DNA from: Bacteroidales bacterium
GTDB taxonomy: Bacteria; Bacteroidota; Bacteroidia; Bacteroidales; WCHB1-69
Assembly (NCBI GenBank): GCA_038240835.1
Contig: JBBRGJ010000001.1
Span: 3,776 to 67,775 of the forward strand
Reading direction: 5' to 3'
DNA length: 64,000 nucleotides
The notes below the pieces were generated by a model. It was not told the origin of the DNA and ran no database searches. It saw only the letters and a program-made list of their open reading frames with translations. A program made the translations under genes and the position numbers. Positions 4,170 to 57,144 of the stretch are shown piece by piece. Position 1 is the stretch's first letter; every line of letters starts with the position of its first letter.

Positions 4170-4676
4170 AGTATTGTTATTTCTTAATTCTGTCTTCTTG
4201 CATTTTTCTTCTTCCTTTGTGAAACTTTGTGCCTCCTTTGTCTACCTAGTATAATGGTAGATAAATGTTACTTCGTGGCACAGCATAAAGTTTTTATTAG
4301 TTGCACTTTTGGCTTCTTTTTTGTCACAAAAATCGATTGCTTCGCCTCAATTTTTCCGCCAAAAAATACAATTTATTTTCCATCTCTGGACCCGGGCGTT
4401 GCCCGAGCCTTATATAAGCTGGGCACTTCGACTTAGCTCAGCACACCGCTTTCAGCCCGTTTATCCTTCACTAGGGGACTAATTTGCCCCACTGTCCCGA
4501 TAATTATCAAGAGCAGTAAAGTTTCTAATTATAAAAGACTTCATATTTCTTACTTCTATATTCTATATTCTTGCTTCTTCTTTTTCAGTCTCGCTTCGCG
4601 CACTCATCACTCATCACTTCTTCTTCTTCAGTTTCACAACAAAAAATCATTTAACTAACATTTCAAAAAATTATTC
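4170..4676. repeat. modular intergenic repeat block A
   Basis: Contains ctttgtg-type module 4211-4240 and inverted hairpin module 4240-4266. Also a reverse-oriented cacttcgac..gctcag module near 4424-4446, cttacttct-type runs 4541-4580 and tctcgcttcgcg/catcactcatcac 4588-4618. Confidence 0.8.
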
Positions 4677-4684
4677 TAAATTTG
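4677..4684 (+). promoter_or_regulatory. Bacteroidota -7 box TAAATTTG upstream of wtpA
   Basis: Exact match to the TAnnTTTG consensus, 49 nt before ATG 4733. Confidence 0.45.
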
Positions 4685-4732
4685 TCATCAATTACCGATA
4701 TGTTTATTTTTACATGTCATAAATACTTGAAA

Positions 4733-5722
4733 ATGAAGAAATACAACACAGTTTTTATTAAAGGATTGATTTCTATTCCGCTCCTTGTGATGATTTTAAT
4801 CTTTTTTTCCAGTTGCAAACCAACAAAAAAAACGGACGATCTTTCGGGCGATCTGATTATCTTCCATGCAGGCAGTCTGTCGATGCCGTTGAAGGAGATT
4901 GCCGTTGAATTTAAAAAGGAATATCCCAACGCAAATATACTGTTTGAAGCGGCTGGAAGTGTCGAAAGTGCTCGTAAGATTACCGAATTAAACAAACCTT
5001 GTGATGTGATGCTCTCTGCTGATTATGCCGTCATTGATAAAATGTTGGTTCCCAAATATGCCGATTGGAATATTAAGTTTGCCTCGAATGAAATGGCCAT
5101 CGTCTTTTCCGAAAAATCAAAACGTAGTGGCGAAATAGATTCTGCAAATTGGATGGATGTTTTACTTGATAAGTCGGTTAAAATTGGTCGCTCCGACCCA
5201 AATTCTGATCCCTGTGGCTATCGGACTGTTTTGGTGGCTAAGTTGGCGGAATCATTTTACAAAAAAGCTGGATTAGCCAACCAATTGATGAACAAAGATC
5301 GGGAGAATATTCGTCCCAAAGAGACTGATTTGTTGGCTTTGTTAGAGACCAATACCATCGATTATATTTTCTTGTATCGTTCGGTGGCGGTTCAGCACAA
5401 CTTGAAATTTATCACTTTACCCGATCAAGTGAACCTTAAAAGTTCTGAATTTGAGGATTTATATAATAACGTTTCAACAAATATTAATGGAAAAAAACCT
5501 GGTGAAACCTACGAGCAAGTGGGAGAACCCATGGTGTATGGGGTCACAATATTGAATAATGCTCCCAATCGGAAATTAGCACTCGCTTTTGTCGAATTTC
5601 TGCTCACAAGCGACAAAGGCATGGCAATCATGGCAAAACTCGGTCAACCATCGGTGGTGCCTTCCTCTACATTTACCTTTGATAAAATTCCGGAAGAGTT
5701 GAAACGTTTTGCAAAGAAATAA
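4733..5722 (+). CDS. wtpA: tungstate/molybdate ABC transporter substrate-binding lipoprotein, WtpA type
   Basis: Motifs FHAGSL, EAAGS, DPNSDPCGYR and VYGVTILNNAPN match the WtpA-type oxyanion binder as I recall it. The lipobox FFSSC follows the internal ATG at 4733. The TTG at 4682 lies inside a promoter box. Confidence 0.7.
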   Translation: MKKYNTVFIKGLISIPLLVMILIFFSSCKPTKKTDDLSGDLIIFHAGSLSMPLKEIAVEFKKEYPNANILFEAAGSVESARKITELNKPCDVMLSADYAVIDKMLVPKYADWNIKFASNEMAIVFSEKSKRSGEIDSANWMDVLLDKSVKIGRSDPNSDPCGYRTVLVAKLAESFYKKAGLANQLMNKDRENIRPKETDLLALLETNTIDYIFLYRSVAVQHNLKFITLPDQVNLKSSEFEDLYNNVSTNINGKKPGETYEQVGEPMVYGVTILNNAPNRKLALAFVEFLLTSDKGMAIMAKLGQPSVVPSSTFTFDKIPEELKRFAKK

Positions 5723-5794
5723 AACTTACTATAATTCTACTTTTAATTGCACTCGTGAGAGTAGGAAAATTACCTCTTTTTTAGCTTTTTTGGC

Positions 5795-5915
5795 GAAGTC
5801 TTGATTTTTTGGTTACTTTTGTTCGTAGAATTTTTATAATATAATGAACTCACGCTTTCGCCCCTTAAAAAGAACGGGGCTCAGTTGTATCAAGACAAAA
5901 GTGACACTAAAAAAG
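5795..5915. repeat. repeat modules inside the wtpA-wtpB spacer
   Basis: gtcttgattttttggttacttttg (5799-5822) and caagacaaaagtgacactaaaaa (5891-5913). The latter recurs at 55328-55350. Confidence 0.65.
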
Positions 5916-6017
5916 AAATAACTTCGGAGTAAATTGTGTTACGCTTTTTTGAAAAATTCTTGTCCTAATGATAATTCCTTGCGGTTTTAAGGAAACAGGT
6001 TAACTACAAAAAAATTA

Positions 6018-6803
6018 ATGATTAAAAAAATAGACACATTAAGTTTAATATTCACCTTTTTGGCGGGGTTGCTCTTGTTGTTTATAATTGCACCCGTTTT
6101 CGGAATGTTCTTATCAACCGCTCCCGTTGAGGTGTTTGATGTAGCTAAAGATGCGGAAGTACAGCGTAGTGTTGGTCTAACTTTATGGACATCTATGTTC
6201 GCCACACTGTTATTTTCTATTGGTGCAATTCCTTTGGCATATTTGCTGGCGCGAAAGAAATTTCCTCTCCGAAAGTTGCTCATTGGGATCATCAATATAC
6301 CTGTAATTATTCCACACTCTGCTGCCGGAATTGCTTTGTTAGGACTGGTTTCTAGAGATACTGTATTGGGCAAATTTGCCGAATCAATCGGTATTAGTTT
6401 TGTAAATCACCCCGCCGGAATTGTCATTGCAATGGCGTTTATCAGCATTCCGTATTTGATTAATTCTTCCATTGATGGGTTTAATAATGTACCCGAAAGA
6501 CTAGAGTTAGTGGCGCAGAATCTCGGTGCATCTAAGTCGAGGGCATTTTTCACCATCGCTCTGCCATTGGCTTGGCGCAATATTCTTACTGGACTGATAA
6601 TGATGTGGGGACGTGGATTGAGCGAATTTGGTGCTATTGTAATTATTGCCTATCACCCAATGGTTACTCCTGTGATGATTTTTGAACGATTTAACTCCTA
6701 TGGACTCGCTTATGCACGACCAGTTACCGTTCTTTTTATCATTATATGCCTGACTATTTTTGTTGGATTAAATTACCTCTCTAAAAGACGTCGAAATGCT
6801 TAA
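6018..6803 (+). CDS. wtpB: tungstate/molybdate ABC transporter permease
   Basis: 261 aa, 5-6 TM helices, binding-protein-dependent permease loop (SKSRAFFTIALPLAWRNI). Overlaps the ATPase gene by 8 nt. Confidence 0.75.
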   Translation: MIKKIDTLSLIFTFLAGLLLLFIIAPVFGMFLSTAPVEVFDVAKDAEVQRSVGLTLWTSMFATLLFSIGAIPLAYLLARKKFPLRKLLIGIINIPVIIPHSAAGIALLGLVSRDTVLGKFAESIGISFVNHPAGIVIAMAFISIPYLINSSIDGFNNVPERLELVAQNLGASKSRAFFTIALPLAWRNILTGLIMMWGRGLSEFGAIVIIAYHPMVTPVMIFERFNSYGLAYARPVTVLFIIICLTIFVGLNYLSKRRRNA

Positions 6804-7851
6804 ATTAGAAAATGTATGTAAATCTTTTAAAGAGTTTTCACTCAACAACGTTACTCTTTCGGTTGAGAAGGGCGCTTATTTTATGCTGATTGGAAGTTCG
6901 GGTTCGGGCAAAACTCTATTGTTAGATATTATTGCTGGATTAAACAATGCCGATAGTGGAACCATACTTGTCAACGGCACCAATGTAAATCTTCTGCCAA
7001 TTCAAAAACGAAATGTTGGGTTAGTCTATCAAAATCAAACTTTATTTCCTCATATGTCTGTGTATGAAAACATTGCTTATCCGCTAAAATGTAAAAAGGT
7101 TGACAAAAAATCAATTTCTAACATAATCCACGACATTGCAGTTGAAACAGAAATTGGTCATCTACTTTTGCGCCGTATTCAGGGACTTTCGGGAGGAGAA
7201 ATACAACGAGTTACCATAGCACGTGCATTGGTTAACAAACCAGATGTTTTGCTTTTAGACGAACCCTTGTCAATGCTCGATGTTCAGTTGAAAAGAGGAG
7301 TGAGCTCGCTGTTGAGAAAATTAAATCAGCAGGGACAAACCATCGTGCATGTCACCCACGACTACGAAGAAGCCCTTTCCTTAGCCAATACCATTGGAAT
7401 TATAGAAAAAGGGACACTTATTCAAACGGGAACAATCAAAGAAGTGCTTCAATATCCGAAATCCGAGTTTGTGGCCAATTTTGTGGGAATAAAGAACTTC
7501 TTCCACGGGAAAATTAAAGAAAAAACACAAAATCTTGCTGTTTTCGACTCGAATGGTGTAATCTTTCAAGTAGAAACCACTTCCAATATCGATGCAAAAG
7601 GTTTCTTAGTAGTGGATGCAAATAATATTGTTGTTTCTCATGAACCGATTTCGTCATTGTCCCCCAACACATTTGAAGGAACAATAGCTGAGGTTTTTCC
7701 AACCAGAAATGGAGTTGAACTAAAGATTGATATAGGTATAGAAATAATTGCACAAATACCCACACACTCATTCGAAAACCTTCCTTTTAAGACAAACTCA
7801 ACCGTCTGGATAACCCTAAATCCCAATGAAATAAGATTTTCAGAGCAATAA
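6796..7851 (+). CDS. wtpC: tungstate/molybdate ABC transporter ATP-binding protein with C-terminal TOBE/Mop-like domain
   Basis: Walker A GSSGSGKT, signature LSGGEIQR, Walker B LLLDEP. The C-terminal ~120 aa look like a TOBE domain. Confidence 0.8.
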   Translation: MLKLENVCKSFKEFSLNNVTLSVEKGAYFMLIGSSGSGKTLLLDIIAGLNNADSGTILVNGTNVNLLPIQKRNVGLVYQNQTLFPHMSVYENIAYPLKCKKVDKKSISNIIHDIAVETEIGHLLLRRIQGLSGGEIQRVTIARALVNKPDVLLLDEPLSMLDVQLKRGVSSLLRKLNQQGQTIVHVTHDYEEALSLANTIGIIEKGTLIQTGTIKEVLQYPKSEFVANFVGIKNFFHGKIKEKTQNLAVFDSNGVIFQVETTSNIDAKGFLVVDANNIVVSHEPISSLSPNTFEGTIAEVFPTRNGVELKIDIGIEIIAQIPTHSFENLPFKTNSTVWITLNPNEIRFSEQ

Positions 7852-7861
7852 TTTGAATGTA

Positions 7862-8232
7862 CTTGATTTCTTATATTCTTGTTACTTCGTTTCACCACTA
7901 AGGCACTTAGAGCACTTAGGAACATTTATCTAACAGCTTGCTGGTAGACTAAGACTTCTGACTTCTTTCTTCTCTTCTTCTTCTTCTTCCTTTGTGAAAC
8001 TTTGTGCCTTCTTTGTGTTACTTCGTGTTATAGCATAAACCTTTCAGCTGGGACACAAAAGACACAAAGAATACACAAAAGACACAAAGAAGATTTATCT
8101 AACAGCTTGCTAGGAAGACTAAGTTCACTAAGAATCATTTATCTACCAGCTTGCTGGTAGACTAAGACTTCTTAATTCTTACTTCTGTATTCCCTCTTCT
8201 TTTCACGTTTCACGGAAAATCGTTTCACTTTC
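7862..8232. repeat. modular intergenic repeat block B
   Basis: Three copies of atttatcta(a/c)cagcttgct(a/g)g(g/t)a(a/g)gactaag (7924-7953, 8093-8123, 8137-8166). Also the ctttgtg/cacaaag hairpin 7986-8092, cttaattcttacttctgtattc 8167-8192 and ttttcacgtttcacggaaaatcgtttcac 8200-8228. Confidence 0.85.
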
Positions 8233-8245
8233 TTGAAAAAAAGAC

Positions 8246-8253
8246 TACTTTTG
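8246..8253 (+). promoter_or_regulatory. -7 box TACTTTTG upstream of moeA
   Basis: TAnnTTTG match 19 nt before ATG 8272. Confidence 0.45.
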
Positions 8254-8271
8254 TACTTAAAACAAAAACGG

Positions 8272-9447
8272 ATGATTACCTTTGAAAAAGCCCTTCGTAC
8301 TGTCCTTGACTCATCTTTTTTAATTGGAGAAGAGGACGTCTCTATTTTGGATTCACTGAACCGAGTATTATCTCAAGACGTGGTTTCTGATATGAATATG
8401 CCGCCTTTCGATAAGTCGGCCATGGATGGTTATGCATGTCGATTTCAGGATGTTAAAAATGTATTGGAAGTAGTGGAGACAATTCCCGCAGGAAAATTCC
8501 CCGAAAAAGAAATTTTTGAAAATCAGTGTGCCAAAATAATGACCGGTGCCAAACTTCCAGTAGGAGCCGATTGTGTGATAATGGTGGAACATACTGAAAA
8601 CGTTGGAGAGGATAAAATTCGTTTTACCAAAGAGACAACCAACAAAAATATTTGCTATTTGGCCGAAGATGTAAAAGAAAACGATATTGTGCTCACCAAA
8701 GGAACGCTCGTCAAACCACAGCATATTGCTATTTTATCCGCAGTGGGCGCTGTTGCTGTACATGTGTTCAAAAAACCTCGAGTGGCTGTCATCGCGACTG
8801 GGGACGAATTGGTTGAACCTTTTTTTAAACCAGAAAAATCACAAATTCGAAACAGTAACGGTTATCAGATGGTGTCGCAAGTGACAAGTTGTGGAGGAAT
8901 TGCCAACTACATGGGAATTGTTCGCGACGATGAAGATTATTCCATTGCATTGATTTCCAAAGCGTTGATGGAGAATGATATTGTGCTCCTTTCGGGAGGA
9001 GTTTCAATGGGCGATTTCGATTTTGTGGGTGCAGCACTCAAAAAAAATGGAATCAATATCCTTTTTGATAGTGTGGCGATTCAACCGGGAAAACCAACAA
9101 CTTTTGGTGTGGGAAATAAAAAAATCTGTTTCGGAATGCCCGGAAATCCAGTCTCCTCATTTATTCAGTTTGAACTATTGGCAAAACCATTGATTCAAAA
9201 AATGAACGGTAGAGATGTCGAAATAGCTTCCCAGAAACTGCCATTGAAGAAAGATTTTTATAGAAAGAAAGCGGAACGATTGGCAATTGTGCCTAGTCAT
9301 ATTCATGCCGATTATACGGTAGAACCAGTAAATTATCATGGTTCGGCTCATATTTTCTCATTAGGAGATGCCGATTCTATCATGTTTATTCCAATGGGTG
9401 TGAATGAATTAAAAGCAGGAGATTTAGTAGATGTTAGACAAATTTAA
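8272..9447 (+). CDS. moeA: molybdopterin molybdenumtransferase MoeA
   Basis: MPPFDKSAMDGYA and PGNPVS motifs. The start is taken at ATG 8272 because the TTG at 8233 lies upstream of the predicted -7 box. Confidence 0.85.
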   Translation: MITFEKALRTVLDSSFLIGEEDVSILDSLNRVLSQDVVSDMNMPPFDKSAMDGYACRFQDVKNVLEVVETIPAGKFPEKEIFENQCAKIMTGAKLPVGADCVIMVEHTENVGEDKIRFTKETTNKNICYLAEDVKENDIVLTKGTLVKPQHIAILSAVGAVAVHVFKKPRVAVIATGDELVEPFFKPEKSQIRNSNGYQMVSQVTSCGGIANYMGIVRDDEDYSIALISKALMENDIVLLSGGVSMGDFDFVGAALKKNGINILFDSVAIQPGKPTTFGVGNKKICFGMPGNPVSSFIQFELLAKPLIQKMNGRDVEIASQKLPLKKDFYRKKAERLAIVPSHIHADYTVEPVNYHGSAHIFSLGDADSIMFIPMGVNELKAGDLVDVRQI

Positions 9448-10231
9448 TAGAGATATAAGCTATCTTCGGATATCTGTAACCGACCGATGCAATTTGCGGT
9501 GTACATACTGCATGCCCGAAGAGGGGATGAAACTGTTGTCGCACAATGATATACTTACGTTCGAAGAGATTGTGGAAATTGTTGAGGTAGGTGTGAAATT
9601 GGGAATTTCAAAAGTTAGAATTACGGGGGGCGAACCCTTGGTGAGAAAAGGAATTGTAGATTTGGTTTCCAAAATTGCTCAAATCGATGGAATCGAAGAT
9701 TTATCCATGACAACCAATGGGATTTTGTTGAAACAATTTGCCGCCGACCTGAAAAAAGCGGGCCTGCATCGCTTAAATATTAGTTTGGATACATTGGATG
9801 CCAATAAATATAGCGAAATTTCCCGTGGAGGAAAATTAAGCGAAGCATTGGAAGGAATTATGGAGGCTAAAAAGATTGGATTTTCGCCCATCAAAATCAA
9901 CTGTGTGATTGTTGAAAATGCGCAAGAACCCGATGCAATCGCGGTAAAAGAGTTTTCCGAAAAACATGGTTTTTTTGTGCGTTATATTCACCAGATGAAT
10001 TTAAATACAGGTGAATTTTCTGTCGTCGAAGGGGGCGATGGAGGTAATTGTATTAACTGCAGCCGCTTAAGATTAACTGCCAATGGAGATTTAAAACCTT
10101 GCCTTTTCAACGATATTTCGTTTAATGTGCACGAGTTTGGAATTGAAGAAGCTTATAAATTGGCCATCGAGAAGAAACCAAAGTGTGGAACTTACAATAA
10201 TACTGGAGAATTTTATAACATAGGAGGTTAA
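9431..10231 (+). CDS. moaA: GTP 3',8-cyclase MoaA, compact 266-aa form
   Basis: Radical-SAM CNLRCTYC, second cluster CxxCx13C (CINCSRLRLTANGDLKPC) and a C-terminal GG. Overlaps moeA by 17 nt. Confidence 0.85.
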   Translation: MLDKFNRDISYLRISVTDRCNLRCTYCMPEEGMKLLSHNDILTFEEIVEIVEVGVKLGISKVRITGGEPLVRKGIVDLVSKIAQIDGIEDLSMTTNGILLKQFAADLKKAGLHRLNISLDTLDANKYSEISRGGKLSEALEGIMEAKKIGFSPIKINCVIVENAQEPDAIAVKEFSEKHGFFVRYIHQMNLNTGEFSVVEGGDGGNCINCSRLRLTANGDLKPCLFNDISFNVHEFGIEEAYKLAIEKKPKCGTYNNTGEFYNIGG

Positions 10232-10684
10232 ATGAAACAATTTTCTCATACCGATAAACAGGGAAAAGCAAATATGGTAGATGTGGGAGATAAAATTCCA
10301 CAACTTCGCATAGCAAAAGCAACGGGTAAAATATTGCTTTCAGCTGATACACTGAAACTTATTCAGGAAAATCTGATGAAGAAAGGAGATGTGCTTACGA
10401 TTGCCAACATTGCTGGAATTCAAGCGGCAAAACAGACCTCTTCGCTCATTCCACTCTGTCACCCGTTGCAAATTACCAAAGCGGATGTAAAAACAACTCT
10501 TTGCGAAGATGGTGTGATTGCCACCAGCGAAGTGAGATGCATTGGACAAACAGGAATAGAAATGGAGGCACTCACAGGAGTAGGCATCGCATTATTGACC
10601 ATTTATGATATGTGCAAAGCTGTCGATAAATCGATGGTGATTGAAGGAATTAGACTCATTGAAAAAACAAAAACTGATATTTAA
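10232..10684 (+). CDS. moaC: cyclic pyranopterin monophosphate synthase MoaC
   Basis: FSHTDKQGKANMVDVGDK and LIPLCHPL motifs. The ATG abuts the moaA stop. Confidence 0.9.
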   Translation: MKQFSHTDKQGKANMVDVGDKIPQLRIAKATGKILLSADTLKLIQENLMKKGDVLTIANIAGIQAAKQTSSLIPLCHPLQITKADVKTTLCEDGVIATSEVRCIGQTGIEMEALTGVGIALLTIYDMCKAVDKSMVIEGIRLIEKTKTDI

Positions 10685-10685
10685 T

Positions 10686-11615
10686 ATGCAAACAATTAAG
10701 ATATTATCTGTAAATACATCAGAGAAAAAAGGCATTGTTAAAACACCCGTTGCTAAAATTGAACTTTCTGAAGTTGGAATTAAAAATGATGCTCATGCAG
10801 GACCTTGGCACCGACAAATAAGCCTTTTGGGAAAAGAGAGTTTTGATAAGTTCTCTATCGAAGCAAAACGTGAAATTCTTTTTGGCGAGTTTGCCGAAAA
10901 CATCACGACCGAAGGTGTCATTTTATATAAAACATCGCCGTTAGATATTTTTAAAAATAAAGAGTTGGAATTGATGGTCACACAAATTGGCAAAAAATGT
11001 CATGGCGATAGTTGTGCGATTTTTCGAGAAGTGGGCAATTGTGTGATGCCAAAAGAGGGGATATTTGCCAAAGTGATTCGCGGTGGCGAAATGAAAGCCG
11101 GCGACGTGTTAGAATATCACCCAAAAATATATAAAGTGAAAGTGATAACGCTTAGCGATCGTGCCAGCAGAGGCGAATATGAAGATTTAAGCGGTCCGGA
11201 AGTTGCCAAAATAGTCCAAACTTATTTCGAAAAAGCAAACAAACTGGTCACCACAGAAGTGGTAGTCATTCCTGACGATGAGGAACAATTGAAACAGATT
11301 TGTATGATGGATAAAAATCATTACGACGTTATTATTACCACCGGCGGAACAGGAATTGGGCCAAGAGACATAACTCCTGACGTAATTCGACCTCTTTTAG
11401 ATAAAGAAATTCCAGGAATTATGGAAATAATCCGTGTTCGTTATGGGATGGAAAAACCCAATGCATCGCTCAGCCGAAGCATCGCTGGAGTGATGGGAAG
11501 CACCTTGGTTTACACCTTGCCAGGAAGCGTAAAAGCCGTAAGAGAATACATGGATGAAATCCTGAAAACACTCGAACACCTTGTCTACATGCAATATGGG
11601 TTGGATGCTCATTAA
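10686..11615 (+). CDS. MOSC domain fused to a MogA/MoaB-type molybdopterin adenylyltransferase domain
   Basis: N-terminal MOSC-like region (GEFAENITTEG). C-terminal MoaB/Mog region (ITLSDRASRGEYEDLSGP, ITTGGTGIGPRDITPD). ATG 10686 lies 2 nt after the moaC stop. Confidence 0.75.
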   Translation: MQTIKILSVNTSEKKGIVKTPVAKIELSEVGIKNDAHAGPWHRQISLLGKESFDKFSIEAKREILFGEFAENITTEGVILYKTSPLDIFKNKELELMVTQIGKKCHGDSCAIFREVGNCVMPKEGIFAKVIRGGEMKAGDVLEYHPKIYKVKVITLSDRASRGEYEDLSGPEVAKIVQTYFEKANKLVTTEVVVIPDDEEQLKQICMMDKNHYDVIITTGGTGIGPRDITPDVIRPLLDKEIPGIMEIIRVRYGMEKPNASLSRSIAGVMGSTLVYTLPGSVKAVREYMDEILKTLEHLVYMQYGLDAH

Positions 11616-16299: not shown

Positions 16300-16625
16300 A
16301 CTGAGACATTTATCTACCAGCTTGCTAGGTAGATTTATCTAACAGCTTGCTGGTAGACTAAGATTTCTGTATTTTTCTTCCTTTGTGAAACTTTGTGAAA
16401 CTTTGTGTCTTCTTTGTGTCACTTTGTGTAATAGCATAAACTTTTCAGCTATGCCACAAAATACACAAAGAAGGCACAAAAGACACAAAGACCACTTTTT
16501 TCTTACTTCTTACTTTTTATTTCTTATTATTTCTTACTTCATTTCACGTTTCACTTTTCACGTTTTGTTCACTGAGCCTGTCGAAGTGCACCTTCTTCTT
16601 CTTCTTCCTCTTCCTCACTTCTATT
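16300..16625. repeat. modular intergenic repeat block F
   Basis: Hairpin module copies 16308-16332 and 16333-16362. Also the ctttgtg/cacaaag hairpin 16377-16494, cttactt runs, ttcacg runs and tcactgagcctgtcgaagtgcac 16569-16591. Confidence 0.85.
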
Positions 16626-16688: not shown

Positions 16689-19001
16689 ATGAAAGTCTGT
16701 ATTGCCGAAAAACCAAGTGTCGCCAAAGAAATTGCCCGTATATTGGGTGCAAATTCGCGTAAAGATGGTTTTTTTGAAGGCAACGATTATCAGGTCACAT
16801 GGACTTATGGCCATTTGTGTACGCTGAAAAGTCCTGATGATTATACCGATCAGTGGAAAAGATGGGATCTCTATGCACTTCCAATGATTCCAACTCGTTT
16901 TGGTCTTAAATTGATCGCAAACGAAGGATCCATCAAACAGTTTAAAGTAATAGAAACTCTTTTAAATTCCTGTGATGAGGTGATAAACTGCGGGGATGCT
17001 GGAATTGAAGGAGAACTTATTCAGCGGTGGGTATTGGCAAAGGCACAATGTACAAAACCTCTCAAACGACTTTGGATATCTTCGCTAACGGACGAAGCCA
17101 TTAAAGAGGGTTTTACAAAGTTAAAACAGGGCAGCGACTTCGATTTATTGTATGCTGCCGGAAATGCCCGTGCCATCAGCGACTGGATTTTGGGAATGAA
17201 TGCCAGCAGACTTTATACACTCAAATATGCCAATGGTAAAGGCGTGTTGTCGGTTGGAAGAGTGCAAACTCCTACATTAGCGCTGCTTGTGCGACGATTT
17301 GAAGAGATTCACAATTTTGTTCCAAAGATCTATTGGGAACTCAAAACTACTTATAGAGAAGTCCTTTTTAATTCTACCAAGGGACGATATGATACGCAGG
17401 AAGATGCAGTTGCTGTATTAGAGAAAATTAAAAGTCATGAGTTTGAAATTGTCTCTTTTGAAAAGAAAAAAGGAACGGAGCAACCTCCTAAACTTTTCGA
17501 TTTAACCTCTCTTCAAGTGGAGTGTAATAAGAAATTTAGCTTTTCGGCAGAAGATACGTTGAAATATATTCAATCGCTCTACGAGAAGAAATTGGTGAGT
17601 TACCCAAGGGTTGATACCACTTTTTTGCCCTTAGATGTCTATCCGAAAATTGAGGGAATTCTGAGAAATATGACACCCTACGCCAATGTAATTGCCCCAC
17701 TGTTGGGGAAACCTATTCGAAAGAGTAAAAAGGTTTTTGATGATAAAAAAATCACCGATCACCACGCTGTTATTCCCACAGGAGTAGCGCCAACGTCGGG
17801 ATTACAACTTTACGAGAAACAAGTATATGATCTAATTGCCAAACGTTTTATCGCCGTTTTCTACCCCGATTGTATTGTGTCGAATACTACTGTCATTGGC
17901 GATGTGGTGGGAACGGAGTTTAAAGCGACTGGAAAAGAGATTTTGGAAGATGGTTGGCGTGTACTTTATCCTAAAAAAGAGTTGGATAAAGAGGAGGGTG
18001 ACAGCGATGAGGAACAATTGATGCCAACTTTTGTCAAAGGAGAACGTGGACCGCATGAACCCGATTTTTTTGAAAAACAGACTCAACCTCCAAAACTACA
18101 CACCGAAGCTACTTTGCTTAGAGCGATGGAAACTGCTGGTAAACAAGTGGATGACGATGAACTGCGTGATTTGATGAAAGAGAATGGAATTGGAAGACCT
18201 TCCACTCGAGCAAATATTATTGAAACTCTTTTTAGACGGAAATATGTAGTCAGAGAGAAGAAGAATTTAGTTCCTACACAAACGGGAATACAATTGATTA
18301 ATACCATTCAAAATGAGTTGCTTAAGTCGGCGGAACTTACTGGAATTTGGGAGAAAAAACTTCGCCAAATTGAACGGGGTGAGTACGATGCAAAGATGTT
18401 TTTGGATGAGATGAAACTGATGGTGGCTCAATTGGTTGCAGATGTGAAAAATGAACACTATTTTGTGATAAATATCGAACAGGATGAGGTTAAAAAAGAG
18501 GCTCCCGAAGCGAAGTCAAAAACTCCTGCAAGCTCCAAAGCCAATGAAGATACTCGTTGTCCAAAATGCAAAAAAGGCAATATTTTAAAAGGAAAATCTG
18601 CTTTTGGTTGCAGTGAGTATAAATCAGGGTGCGATTTTAAAATTGAATTTGAGCAAATGGGAAAAACCCTCACCGATAAACAGATTCTTACGTTGATTTC
18701 TAAAGGGAAATCTCCCAAAATAAAAGGATTTGAAATTGAAGGGAAAAAAGCGAATGGTGTAATTGTTTTAGATTCATCATTTCATGCAAAATTTGAAGCC
18801 GACTCGGAGGAAAAAAGTCAAGTGCCCAAGAAATTAGTCTGCCCAAAATGCGGAAAAGGGGAGATGCTCAAAGGCAAATCTGCATACGGCTGCAGCCACT
18901 TCCGCGAAGGATGCAATTTTGTTGTCTCATTTGATAAGCTAGGAGAAAAAACACCTACTCAAAAAGAACTGGATGAATTGTTCAAAACAGAACATAGATA
19001 G
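16689..19001 (+). CDS. topB: DNA topoisomerase III
   Basis: Toprim start MKVCIAEKPSVA, active-site Tyr context SYPRVDT, and two C-terminal CPKC..GC zinc ribbons. Confidence 0.85.
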   Translation: MKVCIAEKPSVAKEIARILGANSRKDGFFEGNDYQVTWTYGHLCTLKSPDDYTDQWKRWDLYALPMIPTRFGLKLIANEGSIKQFKVIETLLNSCDEVINCGDAGIEGELIQRWVLAKAQCTKPLKRLWISSLTDEAIKEGFTKLKQGSDFDLLYAAGNARAISDWILGMNASRLYTLKYANGKGVLSVGRVQTPTLALLVRRFEEIHNFVPKIYWELKTTYREVLFNSTKGRYDTQEDAVAVLEKIKSHEFEIVSFEKKKGTEQPPKLFDLTSLQVECNKKFSFSAEDTLKYIQSLYEKKLVSYPRVDTTFLPLDVYPKIEGILRNMTPYANVIAPLLGKPIRKSKKVFDDKKITDHHAVIPTGVAPTSGLQLYEKQVYDLIAKRFIAVFYPDCIVSNTTVIGDVVGTEFKATGKEILEDGWRVLYPKKELDKEEGDSDEEQLMPTFVKGERGPHEPDFFEKQTQPPKLHTEATLLRAMETAGKQVDDDELRDLMKENGIGRPSTRANIIETLFRRKYVVREKKNLVPTQTGIQLINTIQNELLKSAELTGIWEKKLRQIERGEYDAKMFLDEMKLMVAQLVADVKNEHYFVINIEQDEVKKEAPEAKSKTPASSKANEDTRCPKCKKGNILKGKSAFGCSEYKSGCDFKIEFEQMGKTLTDKQILTLISKGKSPKIKGFEIEGKKANGVIVLDSSFHAKFEADSEEKSQVPKKLVCPKCGKGEMLKGKSAYGCSHFREGCNFVVSFDKLGEKTPTQKELDELFKTEHR

Positions 19002-19860
19002 CAATTGAACGCGGATTTTTTTGGGGAATAGAGATAGCAGAGAACGCGGATGACGCGGATTTCTTATGATGAACGCGGATTTCTTTTTTTGGATGTTTGA
19101 GGATTTTTAGATAGCAATTGAACGCGGATGACGCTGATTTCTTATGATTAACGCGGATTTTTTTTTGAATGGGCACAAGTTGATCAAAGGTTCTTCGCTA
19201 TTTTGGTGTTTGCCTGCACTCAGATAATCAGATCACTATTTCGCCACTAAGCCATTTATCTACCAGCTTGCGAGGTAGACCAAGATTACTTAAGTTTTTT
19301 TGTCACACTCATTCTCCGCGGCGAAGTGAAGTGTCTCCACCCAAGGCTCTTCTTTATTCTTAATTCTGTATTCTTACTTCTTTCTTTCTTCTCCTTCTTC
19401 TTTTCACCTTTCACGGAAAACCGTTTCACCTTCTTATTTCTTACTTCTGTATTCTTTCTTCTTTCTTCTTCGTTTCACTCCCGATAGGGTTCAGGGTTCA
19501 TGGTGCAGGGTTCAGGGTTTGGTTTTAGTTCTACTTTATTACACGTTCTTCTTGTTTATTGAATTCTTCCTTCCTCTTCTTCTTCTTCTTCATTTCACCT
19601 TTGGTCACTGAGCCTGTCGAAGTGCACTTTTCACGTTTTACCACTAAGGCATTTATCTACCAGCATGCTAGGTAGACTAAGAACACTAAGATTCATTTAT
19701 CTACCAGCCTGCTAGGTAGACTAAGATTTCTTTTCTTCTGTATTCTTTCTTCTTTTTCTTTTTGTCACACTGAGCCTGTCGAAGTGCACCTCCCACCCTT
19801 TGGTCACTGAGCCTGTCGAAGTGCACCTTTCACCTTTCACCTTTCACCCTTCCTCTTTCC
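18996..19860. repeat. modular intergenic repeat block G (865 bp, between convergent topB and the M14 gene)
   Basis: aacgcggat units 18996-19166; hairpin module at 19254-19284, 19651-19681 and 19695-19725. gtcac(ac)tgagcctgtcgaagtgcac at 19604-19627, 19764-19789 and 19803-19826. Also tcagggt heptads 19487-19517 and ttcac / cttactt runs. Confidence 0.85.
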
Positions 19861-21672
19861 CTATCGAAAAACTCCCTTCTTCACCGTCATCAATAAATCC
19901 AACGTAATTTGTTCTGGAACTCTAATCACAGGATATACATTGAAAACTTTGTCCCAGTAAGGCGTTTTTTTATAAAACCAGTTGTAAATGCCATATTGAT
20001 TGTCTCTAAAAAGAGTGTCATTTTTTATCTTTGTTTCAAATTCTAGTTTAAGCGCTGGGTCTTTTTCCATCATTTCGCGCATCATTTTCTCCATTACGTA
20101 AGATTCTGCGTACTCTTTTTGTTCAAAATAGATGTTGAAAAATCCCCATTGCAGAAATGAATCTGGGGAATCGGGCTCAAACATGTGGGCAACTAGTTTT
20201 AATCTCAGTTGTGATACGGGGACAATGATGGAGCCTTTTGGAATCATCACATCTTGCTTGTACATGGAGTTTATCTGACTTTTTACAGTTTGTCTGCCTT
20301 CTGAACTGTTGCCACTCAACTCAATTTTATCGAAAACGGTGACCTCTCCCGGAATGGTAATGTCTGCTTTTGTTCTGAAATACTCTATTTTATGAATGTC
20401 TAAAAGCTCTCCAACAAAAGTGATTTCCGGAGGAATAACGTAGGCGTATGGAAGTGTAACTTGAGATTCTACTTTTAAAGCACGATAATAGGGGATGGAA
20501 AAATTCTCGTTTCGAGTATTATCATATTTAAACCAGTTTCCACCCGTAAGATCGCTCTTGTCCACATCGTAATGCACTCCCTTGAAAGTAGTCATGATGG
20601 AATCGCCACTTGGGACAAATTTTATTGGAAATGGAGCATTGAAAAACTCTTTAGAAACCATCGATTCATCCGCTCTTTTGTTTAAAAACTGAAGGGTGAA
20701 TTTCTCTTTTTTGAATATCTTTAGCGACTCCATTATTAGTTCATAAGTGGCAAATACTCGCGTTTTATACGGTTTTAGCATGTGTGTTTCAATTAGCATA
20801 CAACCTCTGTTACGAGCCGCTGCATAACCATTCATCAACTTTATTGGCGAAACATAATTAATTAATCCACTTCGGGGATCGTGCCAACTTTTGAAAATTA
20901 CGTATGGAAATATGGGGTATCCAAGGGAATCCATTTTTGGCTCTACTTGCTGAATGTATTTGGTCTCCAACCATTTGGATTGCTCTAAATCCATATTGCC
21001 AGAAGTTTCTAAACTGTAAGTGATAGCGTATTGATAATCAGCTCCATCGGTAGTGTGGCAATCAAAAAGGAAATCGGGATTCCATTTGTTGTACATTTTT
21101 AACCAATGTTTCATCTCTATGGCGTCTGCCTTCAGGTAATCCCGGTTTAAATTGTAATTTGCTGCCGTTGTCCGCCAGCCCATCTCCTTGGGACCATTTT
21201 GGTTGATTCGATTGTGAGCGCCCCATCTTTCGTGACCATCTACGTTGAAAATAGGAATAAATAAAATGGTGATATCATCCAATAACTCAATATTTTTCTT
21301 CTTAAAAATTAGGTCTCTAATGAGCATAAAACCTGCATCTTTTCCATCAGGTTCACCCGGATGCACGCACGCTTGAATCAACACCACCACTCTTCCCGAT
21401 TTCTTAATGCTGATGGGATTGGTATAAAAATCCTTGTCGATGATCAGCATTGGAATATCCTTGCCCCGCGCAGACTCGCCAATAGAGACCATGTTCACCA
21501 TTTTTGATTTTTCCTCCAACTCCTTGCAATAATCAACGGTGGCTTTATATGTAGGCGTTTCCAAAAAATCGGAACTTTCAAAATAGGTAGGGGATATGTC
21601 ACCTTTTTGTTGACAAAACACAAATAGAGGATAAATTAAAAGTAAGATTGCAATTGTTTTTTTCATGTTCAA
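19861..21672 (-). CDS. M14 family zinc carboxypeptidase-like protein
   Basis: Signal peptide. Zinc-ligand HxxE motif in the context HPGEPDG, plus NLNRDY and a later His (FDCHTTDG). Confidence 0.75.
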   Translation of the reverse strand: MNMKKTIAILLLIYPLFVFCQQKGDISPTYFESSDFLETPTYKATVDYCKELEEKSKMVNMVSIGESARGKDIPMLIIDKDFYTNPISIKKSGRVVVLIQACVHPGEPDGKDAGFMLIRDLIFKKKNIELLDDITILFIPIFNVDGHERWGAHNRINQNGPKEMGWRTTAANYNLNRDYLKADAIEMKHWLKMYNKWNPDFLFDCHTTDGADYQYAITYSLETSGNMDLEQSKWLETKYIQQVEPKMDSLGYPIFPYVIFKSWHDPRSGLINYVSPIKLMNGYAAARNRGCMLIETHMLKPYKTRVFATYELIMESLKIFKKEKFTLQFLNKRADESMVSKEFFNAPFPIKFVPSGDSIMTTFKGVHYDVDKSDLTGGNWFKYDNTRNENFSIPYYRALKVESQVTLPYAYVIPPEITFVGELLDIHKIEYFRTKADITIPGEVTVFDKIELSGNSSEGRQTVKSQINSMYKQDVMIPKGSIIVPVSQLRLKLVAHMFEPDSPDSFLQWGFFNIYFEQKEYAESYVMEKMMREMMEKDPALKLEFETKIKNDTLFRDNQYGIYNWFYKKTPYWDKVFNVYPVIRVPEQITLDLLMTVKKGVFR

Positions 21673-23024: not shown

Positions 23025-23111
23025 CTGTAAATATCAATTCAATAATACTCTAAAATTGGAACCAAAACAAGCCAAAAGATGTCGGGCCCGAAGAGGGGAG
23101 GCGGGGGCGGA

Positions 23112-23207
23112 GTCTGTAAAGTCGAAAGTCTATCAAGTAAAAAGTTTGTAAAGTAAAAAGTCTATCAAGTAGAAAGTTTATAAAGTAGAAAGTCTATAAA
23201 GGAAATA
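23112..23207 (+). repeat. tandem repeat: six 16-bp units (three 32-bp units)
   Basis: gtctgtaaagtcgaaa gtctatcaagtaaaaa gtttgtaaagtaaaaa gtctatcaagtagaaa gtttataaagtagaaa gtctataaaggaaata. Confidence 0.85.
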
Positions 23208-24001
23208 GCCATCAACAGCCATTAGAGATGGCCGATCATAAAGTTAGTAGAGATTTTTTACCAATTTAAAAAAAATACCAAATCATGAAAAGCACCCTCA
23301 GAGCCACACTCTATAGACTTTAAGGACTTTACAGCCTTTCCACTTTAGGTTTTACTACCATTTGAGTGGAAGAGAGCACAAATATCAAAATTGTTATTTA
23401 AAAAATGTCATGCTGAGATTTCATCCAATAAAAATTTGGAAATAAAGGGTTGATGACAGTGAGAAAATTTACCGCTATTTGGGGCTTAGAATAAGCATTG
23501 TGGCTGTTTTAGCGAGCGTCATACTGTCACGATAGCTATCGTGATAGTCGAAGTATTAAAGAAAGAGGTTTATGAAAGCACTTTTTACAGTCCTTCGATT
23601 AACTCAGGAAGACCAGAAAAAGCAACATTCCAATTCTGTCATTGGTAGTTTATCGAAGTCGACATAGTGAGAATATGAAGAAGAATAATAACCGCAGAGC
23701 TCGCTGAGAGAAGGAAAAAAGTTGAGGACGCAGAGGCGCGAAGCGTGGAAAAGAAGAAAAGGAATACAGAATTAAGAATACAGAAGTAAGAAATCTAAGT
23801 CTACCTAGCAAGCTGGTAGATAAATGTCTTAGTGGTGTCTTTCCTTCTCTTCTCTTTTGTACCTTTTGCTACTTTTGTGGTTCAAAAAAAAAACAAAAAG
23901 CGCGAAGCGCCACCGGAAAACCCCAGCATCGCTTCGCGCCCTTTATAAACTTTACAGACTTTATAGACTTTAAGAACTTTCCACTTTAAGGACTTTATTC
24001 C
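23208..24001. repeat. modular intergenic repeat block H (rest of the 1.1-kb ORF-free region)
   Basis: Reverse-oriented modules: ctatagactttaaggactttacag 23311-23334, gaatacagaagtaag 23761-23793, hairpin module 23795-23825 and ctttataaactttacagactttatagactttaag 23941-23975. Also gtcat(g/a)ctg variants at 23407 and 23519. Confidence 0.8.
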
Positions 24002-49024: not shown

Positions 49025-49345
49025 AGGATTCAGGGTGCAGGGTTTAGGGTTCAGGGTTTCAGGGTTCAAGGTTCAGGGTCAATGGTTTAAGGTTCATGGT
49101 GCAGGGTTTGGTTTTAGTTCTACTTTATTACACGTTCTTCTTATTTATTGTATTCTTTCTTTCACTTCTTGGTTTTGTCACACTGAACAAAGTGAAGTGT
49201 CTCTTCTTACTTCTTAATTCTTTCTTTCTTCTTTTCACGTTTCACTTTTCACAACTCAAAAACACAAAGTCCTCTATAAACTACTTCTTACTTCTTACTT
49301 CTGTATTCTTTCTTCTTCTCACTCGTCACTTCTTCTTTCATATTC
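49025..49345. repeat. modular intergenic repeat block L
   Basis: tcagggt-type heptads 49029-49110; a segment 49091-49160 near-identical to 19495-19570. Also gtcacactgaacaaagtgaagtgtctc 49177-49203 plus cttactt and ttcac runs. Confidence 0.85.
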
Positions 49346-52550: not shown

Positions 52551-52639
52551 CTTTATCTATTTATTTAGATGCAAATATACATTTTATTTATCCTAAATGA
52601 ATTAATTGTAATTTAAAAAAACGAACTTAGCTAGAAGAA

Positions 52640-52925
52640 AGAGGTGCCAAAGTGACGAGTGACGAGTGACAGAGCGGAGTCTCGCTTTTCGCCGGTCTCG
52701 CTTCGCGGTCACTCGTCACCTGTCACTTCCCTCCATCGTCGCTTTCCCGAAAAAAAGAGCAGCCTAATGGCTGATCGTTTTTTTTCGAGGATCCACGAAT
52801 TTTTACAAAATCTCTCCGCCGCGGCGGATTAAAATTCGGGACGCGGTCACTCCCGAAAAAACAATCCGCCAGTATGTGGATTTATTTTTCGGGACCCGTT
52901 ACCTTCCTTCATCGTCACTTTTTCC
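52640..52925. repeat. modular intergenic repeat block N
   Basis: gtgacgagtgacgagtgac 52653-52671 paired with gtcactcgtcacctgtcac 52709-52727. 14-nt perfect palindrome tccgccgcggcgga 52815-52828. cccgaaaaa / tttttcggg hairpin units are shared with block M. Confidence 0.8.
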
Positions 52926-52992
52926 TACAAACAATGAACATTGCTTTGTTAGCAAAAAAAAACAAAATACAATATTGAAAAACAAAACACGT

Positions 52993-53000
52993 TAATTTTG
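52993..53000 (+). promoter_or_regulatory. -7 box TAATTTTG upstream of exbB
   Basis: TAnnTTTG match 29 nt before ATG 53029. Confidence 0.45.
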
Positions 53001-53028
53001 CATCATCAAATATTAAATTTAAAAGTAT

Positions 53029-54924: not shown

Positions 54925-54950
54925 TAGTTTTGTAGATATATTTCTAAAAT

Positions 54951-54991
54951 AAAAAAATGCTCAAGTATCGAAATATTTGAGCATTTTTTTT
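54951..54991 (+). terminator. intrinsic terminator after tonB
   Basis: aaaaaaatgctcaa - 12-nt loop - ttgagcatttttttt. Confidence 0.65.
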
Positions 54992-55009
54992 ATGAAATCT
55001 TTTTAGGGG

Positions 55010-55300
55010 GAGAAGTGAACAGGTGAGTGAAGCTCGTTCTGAAAGAGGTGACGGAGTAACGGGGTAACGGGGTAACGGAGCGAAGCTCGTCTGAAGAAGT
55101 GGCCGAGTGGCGGAGTAGCCGAGTGGCGGAGTGGAGCGAAGCTCGACTGGCCTCGCAAGAGTCTCGCTTCGCGCCCGGACTCGCTTGCGCATCGTCGCTT
55201 CGCGCCCGGACTCGCTTGCGCATCGTCGCTTTGCGGTCACTCCGTTACTCCGTAGCCCCGTCACCTTCTTCACTCGTCACCCCGTTACTTTTTTCTCAAA
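55010..55300. repeat. GC-rich modular repeat block O (upstream of folC)
   Basis: ggtaacgg octads 55047-55080. gccgagtggcggagt units. About 108 bp (55096-55203) are ~94% identical to 56789-56895. A perfect 31-bp tandem duplication lies at 55164-55225, with complementary gtcactccgttac / gtcacc modules on the right arm. Confidence 0.85.
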
Positions 55301-55316
55301 GTATTATTTTTTTTTC

Positions 55317-55324
55317 TACTTTTG
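55317..55324 (+). promoter_or_regulatory. -7 box TACTTTTG upstream of folC
   Basis: TAnnTTTG match 105 nt before ATG 55429. Confidence 0.4.
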
Positions 55325-55428
55325 CAGCAAGACAAAAGTGACATTAAAAATAGGATCTTAGAAGGAAAAAAGGTTCATCTTTTTCGACAAAATATTTTTT
55401 TTAAAAAGAGTAAATCAATTGCTTAATT

Positions 55429-56703: not shown

Positions 56704-57000
56704 AAGAGGTGACGAGTGACGAGTGACGAGTGACGGAGCGAAGCTCGACTGAAGAGGTGACGGGGTAACGGAGCGAAGCTTATCTGAGGAAGTGGCCGAG
56801 TTGCGGAGTAGCCGAGTGGCGGAGTGGAGCGAAGCTCGACTGGCCTCGCAAGAGTCTCGCTTCGCACCAGACTCCCTTGCGCATCGTCGCTTCGCGGTCA
56901 CTCGTCACTCGTCACCTGTCACTTTCCTCCATCGTCGCTTCGCGGTCACCCCGTTATTTCGTCACCCCGTTACCTTCTTGCTCCGTTTCTTCGAAGTCAT
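56701..57000. repeat. GC-rich modular repeat block P (downstream of folC)
   Basis: gtgacga heptads 56709-56734 are mirrored by gtcactcgtcactcgtcacc 56897-56916. It shares the ~108-bp core with block O and cgcttcgcggtcactcgtcacctgtcactt.cctccatcgtcgctt with block N. Confidence 0.85.
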
Positions 57001-57117
57001 CCTCCATTTCCCCCCTTGGAAAACAGAGTATTGAAAGGGTTTTCTCTTTTCCTTTGTTCAATAAATGTTTAACAATTTTTTTGTTATAAAAATAGTGTAA
57101 AAAACAACTATTTTTCA

Positions 57118-57125
57118 TACTTTTG
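57118..57125 (+). promoter_or_regulatory. -7 box TACTTTTG upstream of guaB
   Basis: TAnnTTTG match 20 nt before ATG 57145. Confidence 0.45.
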
Positions 57126-57144
57126 CACGATAAAGTATAAAATT

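Follow-up and report, generated by a model that had tools for sequence, protein, structure and literature searches.

Repeats of the repetitive extragenic palindromic (REP) type are well studied in Proteobacteria, and the gene of the REP-associated tyrosine transposase (RAYT) is usually single-copy in a genome. To our knowledge, the REPs of Bacteroidota are known only as "atypical secondary structures" spotted by eye beside RAYT genes of subclass 2.6. Here we analyze a family of 24–25-nt hairpin units in a 64,000-nt stretch of a Bacteroidales bacterium contig (JBBRGJ010000001.1; the whole stretch is called the window). We give a probability of roughly 0.55 to the reading that the unit is a miniature REP-like insertion element, set 5′ of AC(T/A)AAG words within a mosaic resembling the BIMEs (bacterial interspersed mosaic elements), in Lentimicrobiaceae-like Bacteroidota.

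TnpA-Y1 subclass 2.6 (Bertels group 5) occurs mostly in Bacteroidetes, and its genes are flanked by atypical, weakly folding structures without GT[AG]G, copies of which lie elsewhere in the genome (PMC6006769). The tabulated REPs of this subclass are mostly 24–28 nt long, with a 3–5-nt foot, an 8–10-bp stem and a 3–4-nt loop, and end at the stem (PMC6006769). The window unit resembles them in phylum, in its size of 24–25 nt, in its order of unpaired 5′ foot, stem and short loop ending at the stem, in the absence of a GT[AG]G tag, in its weak or imperfect fold and in its dispersed extragenic copies (PMC6006769). It differs from them in its foot, which is ATTTAT and not their frequent GCTRG, in the head-to-tail arrangement of copies inside word arrays, and in that a cognate RAYT gene with the repeat on its flanks (a REPtron) was not found in the DNA scanned. 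The sequence of the unit is not in the tables of PMC6006769. The 3′ half of the stem holds GCTAGG (for example at 19669–19674) or GCTGG (for example at 7940–7944), and the foot often seen in the subclass 2.6 REPs of Aequorivita, Zobellia and Spirosoma, GCTAG/GCTGG, is matched by these; no hairpin comes after it here, so we take the match as a coincidence or a lead only.

Like the REPs, BIMEs and REP doublets forming hairpins (REPINs) of Proteobacteria (PMC3733652, PMC3116915, PMC2817692), the units are short imperfect extragenic palindromes with bulge or mismatch subfamilies, cluster with other conserved motifs in mosaic intergenic regions, are occasionally nested, and have a lineage-specific sequence. 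REPs nested in other conserved palindromes are known (PMC3733652). REPs are imperfect palindromes of 20–40 nt able to fold as hairpins, and the unit, at 24/25 nt, falls within this range in size and fold. Unlike canonical REPs, it has no unpaired GTAG/CGTC tag (GT[AG]G or CGTC at the hairpin foot); the GTAG that it does contain is paired and closes the stem on the 3′ side. Unlike REPINs, in which an inverted REP pair forms a larger hairpin, unit pairs are direct and none is inverted. The copy number, which for REPs usually exceeds 100 per genome, appears low.

The unit resembles IS200/IS605 elements (IS608, ISDra2; PMC6006769) in having neither terminal inverted repeats nor target duplication, in a hairpin that would be the recognised part, and in its single, fixed orientation beside a specific short sequence. 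It differs in having one hairpin, 25 nt in total and no transposase gene and, unlike at the left end of IS608, its hairpin foot directly abuts the presumed target. A derivative of this family would have ends akin to those of a full-length IS with tnpA in its genome; no tnpA was found in the DNA scanned. With miniature inverted-repeat transposable elements (MITEs) and the BOX and Correia repeats (PMC3184786) it shares a non-coding, intergenic and repeated nature, and the surrounding mosaic is modular like BOX (A-Bn-C). Unlike MITEs, the unit is far smaller and has no terminal inverted repeats and no target-site duplication. The small dispersed repeats (SDR4–6) of Nostocaceae, attributed to Elhai et al. 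2008, are reportedly 21–27 nt long, have hairpin potential and belong to one lineage, and SDRs are said to be inserted precisely into other repeats, leaving the target unduplicated, in genomes where short tandem word arrays abound. Our unit, unlike these, comes from a different phylum, and its sequence is unrelated. On this comparison, we place it closest to the atypical Bacteroidetes REPs and, in size and nesting behaviour, to the cyanobacterial SDRs, and file it as a variant of the REP/SDR kind, without claiming proven membership of a named family.

Form and extent of the hairpin unit

The copy set comprised 20 copies, ten in the window and ten in three other metagenome-assembled genomes (MAGs). 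A preliminary description of the window had listed ten copies, at 7924, 8093, 8137, 16308, 16333, 19254, 19651 and 19695 on the plus strand and at 4236–4266 and 23795–23825 on the minus strand; all were recovered, and they form a real family of hairpin modules with fixed flanks that are intergenic and often paired. The unit is 24 or 25 nt long (ATTTAT followed by CTAMCAGC-TT-GCT(A)GGTAG, with ACTAAG excluded) and is composed of an unpaired 6-nt 5′ foot, ATTTAT, and an imperfect 8-bp hairpin with a 2-nt loop, the end of the stem being the 3′ end of the unit. In the 25-nt form, ATTTAT CTACCAGC TT GCT-A-GGTAG, an A is bulged; the 24-nt form, ATTTAT CTAACAGC TT GCTGGTAG, has an A.G mismatch (CTAAC form). 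The hairpin of 7–8 bp proposed earlier is real, but its stem is a perfect 8 bp only in copy 8137. The hairpins are weak, with folding energies of −3.6 to −6.4 kcal/mol for single-stranded DNA, and one degenerate copy is unfolded. No inverted repeats were found outside the hairpin.

ATTTAT on the 5′ side is unchanged in all 20 copies. The hexamer on the 3′ side is ACTAAG in 15 of the 20 and ACTTAG, ACCAAG, ACAAAG, ACTCAG or ATTTAT in one each; the base preceding the unit is C in 15 copies, and an AC..AG word starts 8–10 nt upstream in 19. Both flanks had been described as fixed. ATTTAT belongs to the unit, and ACTAAG, although frequent, does not; the unit is smaller than had been claimed. In 19 of 20 copies the unit stands 5′ of AC(T/A)AAG on the top strand, that is, 3′ of CTTWGT (CTTAGT or CTTTGT) on the bottom strand, and the other copy abuts another unit. 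The orientation of the unit follows that of the word, including in a reversed palindrome arm.

All pairs of units are direct, window pairs having a spacing of 25 or 44 nt and the pair at locus L004 of one MAG a spacing of 34 nt, and no inverted pairs were found. Paired copies had been called back-to-back, which is true of 16308/16333, where the units abut, but 8093/8137 and 19651/19695 are spaced at 44 nt. The stretch 19641–19730 reads CCACTAAGGC-[ATTTATCTACCAGCATGCTAGGTAG]-ACTAAGAACACTAAGATTC-[ATTTATCTACCAGCCTGCTAGGTAG]-ACTAAG, with the units in brackets.

None of the ten listed copies is expected by chance. A degenerate 31-nt pattern gave 7 matches against 0.00 expected (100 shuffles), and the 18-nt palindrome gave 3 against 0.06. 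A profile built from all copies and run over the window returned exactly 10 matches, which were the known copies, with no extras. The window copies are confined to five intergenic regions, intergenic sequence making up 10.5% of the window (P ~1e-5 for five loci), and all 20 copies, in the window and the three MAGs, are extragenic.

An intrinsic terminator has a stable G+C-rich stem and a T-run. As had been noted before, the units are not of this kind: no T-run follows any copy, the stem running on into ACTAAG, and no unit is among the terminator-like sites. A search with Rfam 15 gave 0 matches at the gathering score in the window, and at 19000–19900 only a chance-level match to MicA (E = 9.9); the unit matches no Rfam 15 family.

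Insertion position and the flanking word array

An alignment of three imperfect palindromes of ~100 nt shows that the unit alone, ACTAAG excluded, can be inserted precisely and leave its target unduplicated. The copy at 4190–4330 contains a clean 25-nt insertion, which is a minus-strand unit, and the copies at 7965–8095 and 16356–16496 are without it. The words flanking the nested copy (ACGAAGTAAC upstream and ACAAAG downstream) are already present in both empty paralogues, so that nothing was duplicated, and the site of insertion, C^ACAAAG, is similar to the usual C^ACTAAG.

The unit at 16308–16332 is followed directly by that at 16333–16356, with ACTAAG after the second only, which means that the inserted entity is without ACTAAG and that its site is the position 5′ of this word. 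When units were deleted in silico, the distance between the upstream and downstream words became 8, 9 or 10 nt in 19 of 19 cases, and neighbouring CACTNAG words with no unit between them show an equal spacing of 8–10 nt. The unit thus interrupts a regular CACNNAG array at a fixed phase, C^AC(T/A)AAG. Taken together, the nested bare insertion, the abutting pair and the restored array period define the repeated entity as the bare 24/25-nt unit without ACTAAG.

The preliminary description had seen the element as bracketed by a direct repeat of ACTAAG. Words of this type do occur on both sides, but they are a host array, or landing site, and not the element's own bracket or a target-site duplication. 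The words at the two ends of the unit differ, being ..NNC at the upstream end and ACTAAG at the downstream end, and in most copies each of the two words is followed by a different spacer; 2–4 variable bases separate the upstream word from the unit, and the downstream word abuts it. With the lack of duplication and the restored period, this mismatch identifies the bracket as a host array of CACNNAG words. The position of the unit in the array (after the first, second or third word) and the number of units (one or two) vary among loci and genomes, and an ACTAAG array free of units is found at 3485–3550 of L005, a locus of a related MAG.

These observations bear on the explanation that a MITE-like module duplicated an ACTAAG target on insertion, the flanking words being the duplication, for which the preliminary description had suggested a test. 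An ACTNAG-type word stands on both sides of nearly every copy, as this explanation would have it. Yet the filled/empty comparison reveals a bare 25-nt insertion between pre-existing words, the upstream word is set off by variable bases whereas the downstream word abuts, the spacers on the two sides differ, and no terminal inverted repeats exist beyond the hairpin. The filled/empty comparison contradicts this explanation, which we consider very improbable.

Precise insertion, the lack of inverted termini and a fixed orientation are hallmarks of the single-strand, hairpin-guided transposition of the IS200/IS605/RAYT type. If the unit is a REP-like insertion element, new copies would arise by sequence-specific insertion of a folded single strand. 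On the bottom strand the unit lies 3′ of CTTWGT, a position comparable to that of IS200/IS605-type elements 3′ of their short target. The enzyme would act in trans and recognise the hairpin, and would most likely be a RAYT-type Y1 HUH transposase. Composite blocks (words with a unit, and unit dimers) may spread further via duplication and array slippage.

Table 1. Hairpin units and their host repeats in the window
Feature	Position	Strand	Basis
Unit, 25-nt form, most divergent; nested in left arm of CTTTGTG...CACAAAG palindrome at C^ACAAAG (minus strand)	4242–4266	−	25-nt gap in both paralogues
Host repeat with nested unit; empty paralogues 7973–8092 and 16364–16491	4198–4300	+	paralogue alignment
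Unit, 24-nt CTAAC form; three words before (7896–7923), ACTAAG after (7948–7953)	7924–7947	+	
Unit, 25-nt form, degenerate (GGAAG); final CACAAAG of the large palindrome serves as upstream word	8093–8117	+	
Unit, 24-nt form, perfect 8-bp stem; dimer with 8093 at 44-nt spacing	8137–8160	+	
Unit, 25-nt form; abuts next unit, ACTAAG absent between	16308–16332	+	
Unit, 24-nt form, then ACTAAG (16357–16362)	16333–16356	+	
Unit, 25-nt form, GCG variant; CCACTAAGCC before, ACCAAG after	19254–19278	+	
CACTAAG word array hosting two units; with units removed: CACTAAGG CACTAAGAA CACTAAGATT CACTAAG	19642–19725	+	sequence
Unit, 25-nt form, ATTTAT CTACCAGC AT GCTAGGTAG	19651–19675	+	pattern and profile search
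Unit, 25-nt form, second dimer member, 44-nt spacing	19695–19719	+	pattern and flank tabulation
Unit, 25-nt form, equal to the L001 copy; on the minus strand CCACTAAGAC before (23826–23835), ACTTAG after (23795–23800)	23801–23825	−	

Relatives in other genomes and genes around the units

A scan with the exact pattern over one genome per species (185,579) gave six matches at five loci, which belong to three MAGs: Bacteroidales CAUVYH02, Bacteroidota JBAXTE01 and Lentimicrobiaceae CAZZHH01 (GCA_964653595.1). The ten further copies in these MAGs have the foot, stem and context of the window copies, for example ..TTTCACC ACTAAGG CACTCAGAG C[unit]ACTAAG nnn CACTAAG.., and the copy at locus L001 equals window 23801–23825 over all 25 nt, together with the CCACTAAGAC upstream flank and the first three downstream bases (ACT). 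A scan of viral contigs gave 0 matches. When metagenome contigs were scanned with the inner stem left free, 41 loci were obtained, all of them chance matches or unrelated and none with the AGCTTGCT core or the ACTAAG context, so that no divergent relatives were gained for the analysis of covariation. One candidate tandem relative, L039, was rejected as an operator-like palindrome pair upstream of a TonB receptor gene on a high-GC contig.

The copies were compared with the divergence of their surroundings. Homologues of the window topoisomerase III on three long contigs are 79–83% identical to it, and the enzyme is 79–87% identical among the compared genomes (window, L047, L049, L051), in which synonymous third positions are 36–44% identical, that is, saturated. 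L047 is syntenic with the window from moeA to the M14 peptidase gene, and the unit is absent from its orthologous modC–moeA, upstream-of-topoisomerase and topoisomerase–M14 spacers; these carry other repeats and are conserved only over 30–40 nt next to start codons. Near-identical sequence in spite of saturated neutral sites and unconserved positions means that the sequence is maintained while positions turn over. An element continually re-copied by some sequence-specific process would be expected to behave in this way; a gene-specific regulatory site would not.

The genes flanking the units are unrelated housekeeping genes with no common function; those adjoining the MAG copies encode lysyl-tRNA synthetase, TauE, PAP2, DsbD_2, a phosphatase and a methyltransferase. 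The majority of copies have the sense orientation of the adjoining genes and lie downstream of a stop codon, and three (window 4242, L001 and L003) are antisense to both neighbours. A cis site selected by the host would be either TCTACC-N8/9-GGTAGA bound by a dimeric DNA-binding or nucleoid protein, or an RNA hairpin that protects mRNA 3′ ends or pauses transcription. Such a site would account for a near-invariant sequence across genomes with saturated neutral sites, for the prevalence of sense copies after stop codons and for the several window copies around mod/moa genes, and secondary roles of this sort are known for REPs (PMC3733652). We regard it as improbable, however, because units are not kept at orthologous positions, including the modC–moeA spacer, their flanking genes share no function, three of the copies run antisense to the genes on both sides, the weak stems are followed by no T-run and are in no case terminator-like, stem variants break pairs instead of compensating, and no Rfam match exists. 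If the unit is an insertion element, any host role (mRNA 3′ protection, protein binding) would be secondary.

The covariation test used 18 distinct copies from four genomes and a 9-bp helix. Over the nine pairs, 88.9% of cells pair. The sole compensatory cell, C-G to T-A, is in the nested copy (4242–4266), and 59 of 500 shuffles reached the observed covariation score. The remaining variation disrupts pairs: three copies have GGAAG, one has GCG, and ten of the 18 have the A.G mismatch of the CTAAC form. The compensating stem variants of the preliminary description are thus not borne out, since the mismatch of the CTAAC form is uncompensated; the copies are too uniform for the test either to support or to refute the structure. 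The persistence of a single bulge or mismatch at one stem position may be compared with hairpins read by proteins, which it resembles.

At 4682–11615 the window carries molybdate uptake genes (a ModA-like substrate-binding protein, a permease and an ABC ATPase with TOBE), followed by genes for MoeA, MoaA, MoaC and a MOSC/MoCF protein. Rfam found no molybdenum cofactor (Moco) riboswitch at 4682–11615. The idea of a ModE-type or Moco operator, suggested by the mod/moa neighbours, was rejected: the orthologous spacer of the syntenic MAG is without the unit, and the copies of other genomes flank unrelated genes. On the minus strand at 26933–47376 lies a cluster for polysaccharide biosynthesis and export with glycosyltransferases, NeuB, UDP-GlcNAc 2-epimerase, a flippase, Wzz/GNVR, Poly_export and a NusG-like protein. 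G+C content falls to 0.29–0.32 at 26–34 kb, which suggests a horizontally acquired or variable segment.

The repeat mosaic and the nature of the unit

The intergenic regions that bear units consist almost wholly of short repeats: TTTCAC(C/G), CTTCTTA/CTGTATT and AGGGTTC heptamers, CACNNAG words, a CACTGAGCCTGTCGAAGTGCAC module and the CTTTGTG palindrome. This vocabulary and much of its order recur in related MAGs. It is possible, though unlikely, that the hairpin is an integral part of a larger composite repeat (TTTCAC words, CACTNAG words with the hairpin, CTTCTTA/CTGTATTC words) that spreads in blocks by recombination, duplication and slippage, the bare unit not being itself mobile. The order of modules recurs in four genomes, the type of flank co-varies with the subtype of unit, the dimers 8093/8137 and 19651/19695 are alike, CACTAAG in the window almost always adjoins a unit, and a 240-bp tandem duplication at L004 includes two units, all of which a composite repeat would explain. 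It would not explain the bare 25-nt insertion at 4242–4266 in an unrelated repeat, the abutting units 16308 and 16333 with no words between them, the unit-free ACTAAG array at 3485–3550 of L005, or the varying position and number of units within arrays.

Part of this evidence counts against the unit as a miniature REP-like insertion element. At window 7924 and at L002, L003 and L004 (the latter three representing two MAGs), the 24-nt form is accompanied by a two-word upstream flank, CCACTAAGGCACTNAGAGC, and the two dimers at 44-nt spacing are 89% identical over 63 nt; the link between flank and subtype and the identity of the dimers indicate that at least part of the spread occurred by block duplication. 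In the window, CACTAAG stands beside a unit in six of seven cases, and words could travel with the unit. There is a single clean filled/empty pair, found between paralogues of the window, and ~20 copies are known in all. The stem of the unit is more AT-rich and weaker than those of subclass 2.6 REPs, about −4 to −6 kcal/mol (DNA) against roughly −10 to −17 for most of those listed, in a table whose energy parameters are unstated. Stem covariation was not significant across the 18 copies of four genomes. Finally, Pfam detected no Y1/HUH or other transposase in ~50 open reading frames (ORFs) of the window and no transposase in ten ORFs adjoining units in the other MAGs, and a scan for the HUH...Y motif found no transposase in 186,603 bases, a small fraction of each genome.

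We therefore hold to a two-level picture, in which unit-level insertion would be combined with duplication and slippage at the level of blocks, in a BIME-like organisation. The tandem duplication at L004 (positions 1–480 of this locus, on a JBAXTE01 contig) is perfect over 240 bp, with two units in each copy, and may be either genuine or produced by the repeats during assembly.

Other members of the mosaic were recorded alongside the units. CTTTGTG left-arm and CACAAAG right-arm words around a GCATAAAC core form the ~100-nt palindromes at 4198–4300, 7973–8092 and 16364–16491; the stretches 7990–8090 and 16391–16491 are 89% identical, and in the copy at 4198 different sequence takes the place of the right arm. 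Another family of modules, (GT)CACTGAGCCTGTCGAAGTGCAC, is found at 16570–16593, 19604–19627, 19768–19791 and 19805–19828, with longer or shorter variants at 19297–19336 and 49172–49199 and also at L005 3570–3655; it is common to the Lentimicrobiaceae MAG. The first word of this module is CACTGAG, and it may likewise have been inserted into the word arrays. Heptamer arrays, made of AGGGTTC words (~12 copies at 49025) and of words of the CTTCTTA/CTGTATT and TTTCACG/TTTCACC types, occupy 49025–49108 and 19486–19520 as well as 19348–19476, 19727–19763, 16495–16565 and 19824–19852, and fill most of the long intergenic regions; a 96-nt stretch, 19486–19581, is 86% identical to 49075–49170.

Just past the stop codon of the topoisomerase III gene, at 19010–19165, AACGCGGAT(G/T) words (gaacgcggatgacgcggatttcttatgatgaacgcggatttc) occur twice in one orientation and so form no hairpin. 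A 1.1-kb intergenic region contains 5.7 copies of the 16-nt tandem repeat AGTCTATAAAGTAGAA and the 9-nt words GACTTTATA/AACTTTACA (window 23111–23205, 23308–23347 and 23940–23997); these words recur in related MAGs at L047 12470–12560, L049 4110–4230 and L005 3780–3820. The motif TTTCACGGAAAA(T/C)CGTTTCAC lies at 8201–8232 and 19402–19433, and at L047 100–125 and L049 4345–4375; its position upstream of moeA is kept in the syntenic MAG, with AAAAAAAGACTACTTTTGT, and the motif could represent either a true regulatory site or a further repeat module. A G+C-richer vocabulary appears at 52551–53028, 54925–55428 and 56704–57144, with the 8-mers AGTGGCCG/GGTAACGG, the heptamers GTGACGA/GTCACTC and CATCGTCGCTTCGCGGTCAC modules, and includes a 122-nt repeat (55054–55175 and 56747–56868, 92% identity). 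Among the REPs listed for Bacteroidetes RAYT subclass 2.6, the G+C-rich ones are similar to the CGCTTCGCG cores.

For the annotation of this lineage, the mosaics likely cause assembly breaks and spurious ORF calls in MAGs, and the units are not to be mistaken for terminators, riboswitches or operators. More speculatively, and in our view doubtful, the unit and the CACNNAG arrays could together represent an undescribed site-specific single-strand insertion system of Lentimicrobiaceae-like Bacteroidota, with the arrays as landing pads or footprints and with a RAYT-like or other enzyme as the mover, having a new foot specificity, ATTTAT, and the target CTTWGT. If that were true, no type of target-specific mobile DNA smaller than this foot-plus-hairpin of 24–25 nt would be known. 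The case is a clean one: the boundaries of the unit are exact, its insertion position is defined (5′ of AC(T/A)AAG, without duplication) and there is a host array, so that the targeting of such tiny elements becomes directly testable with a complete genome or the cognate enzyme.

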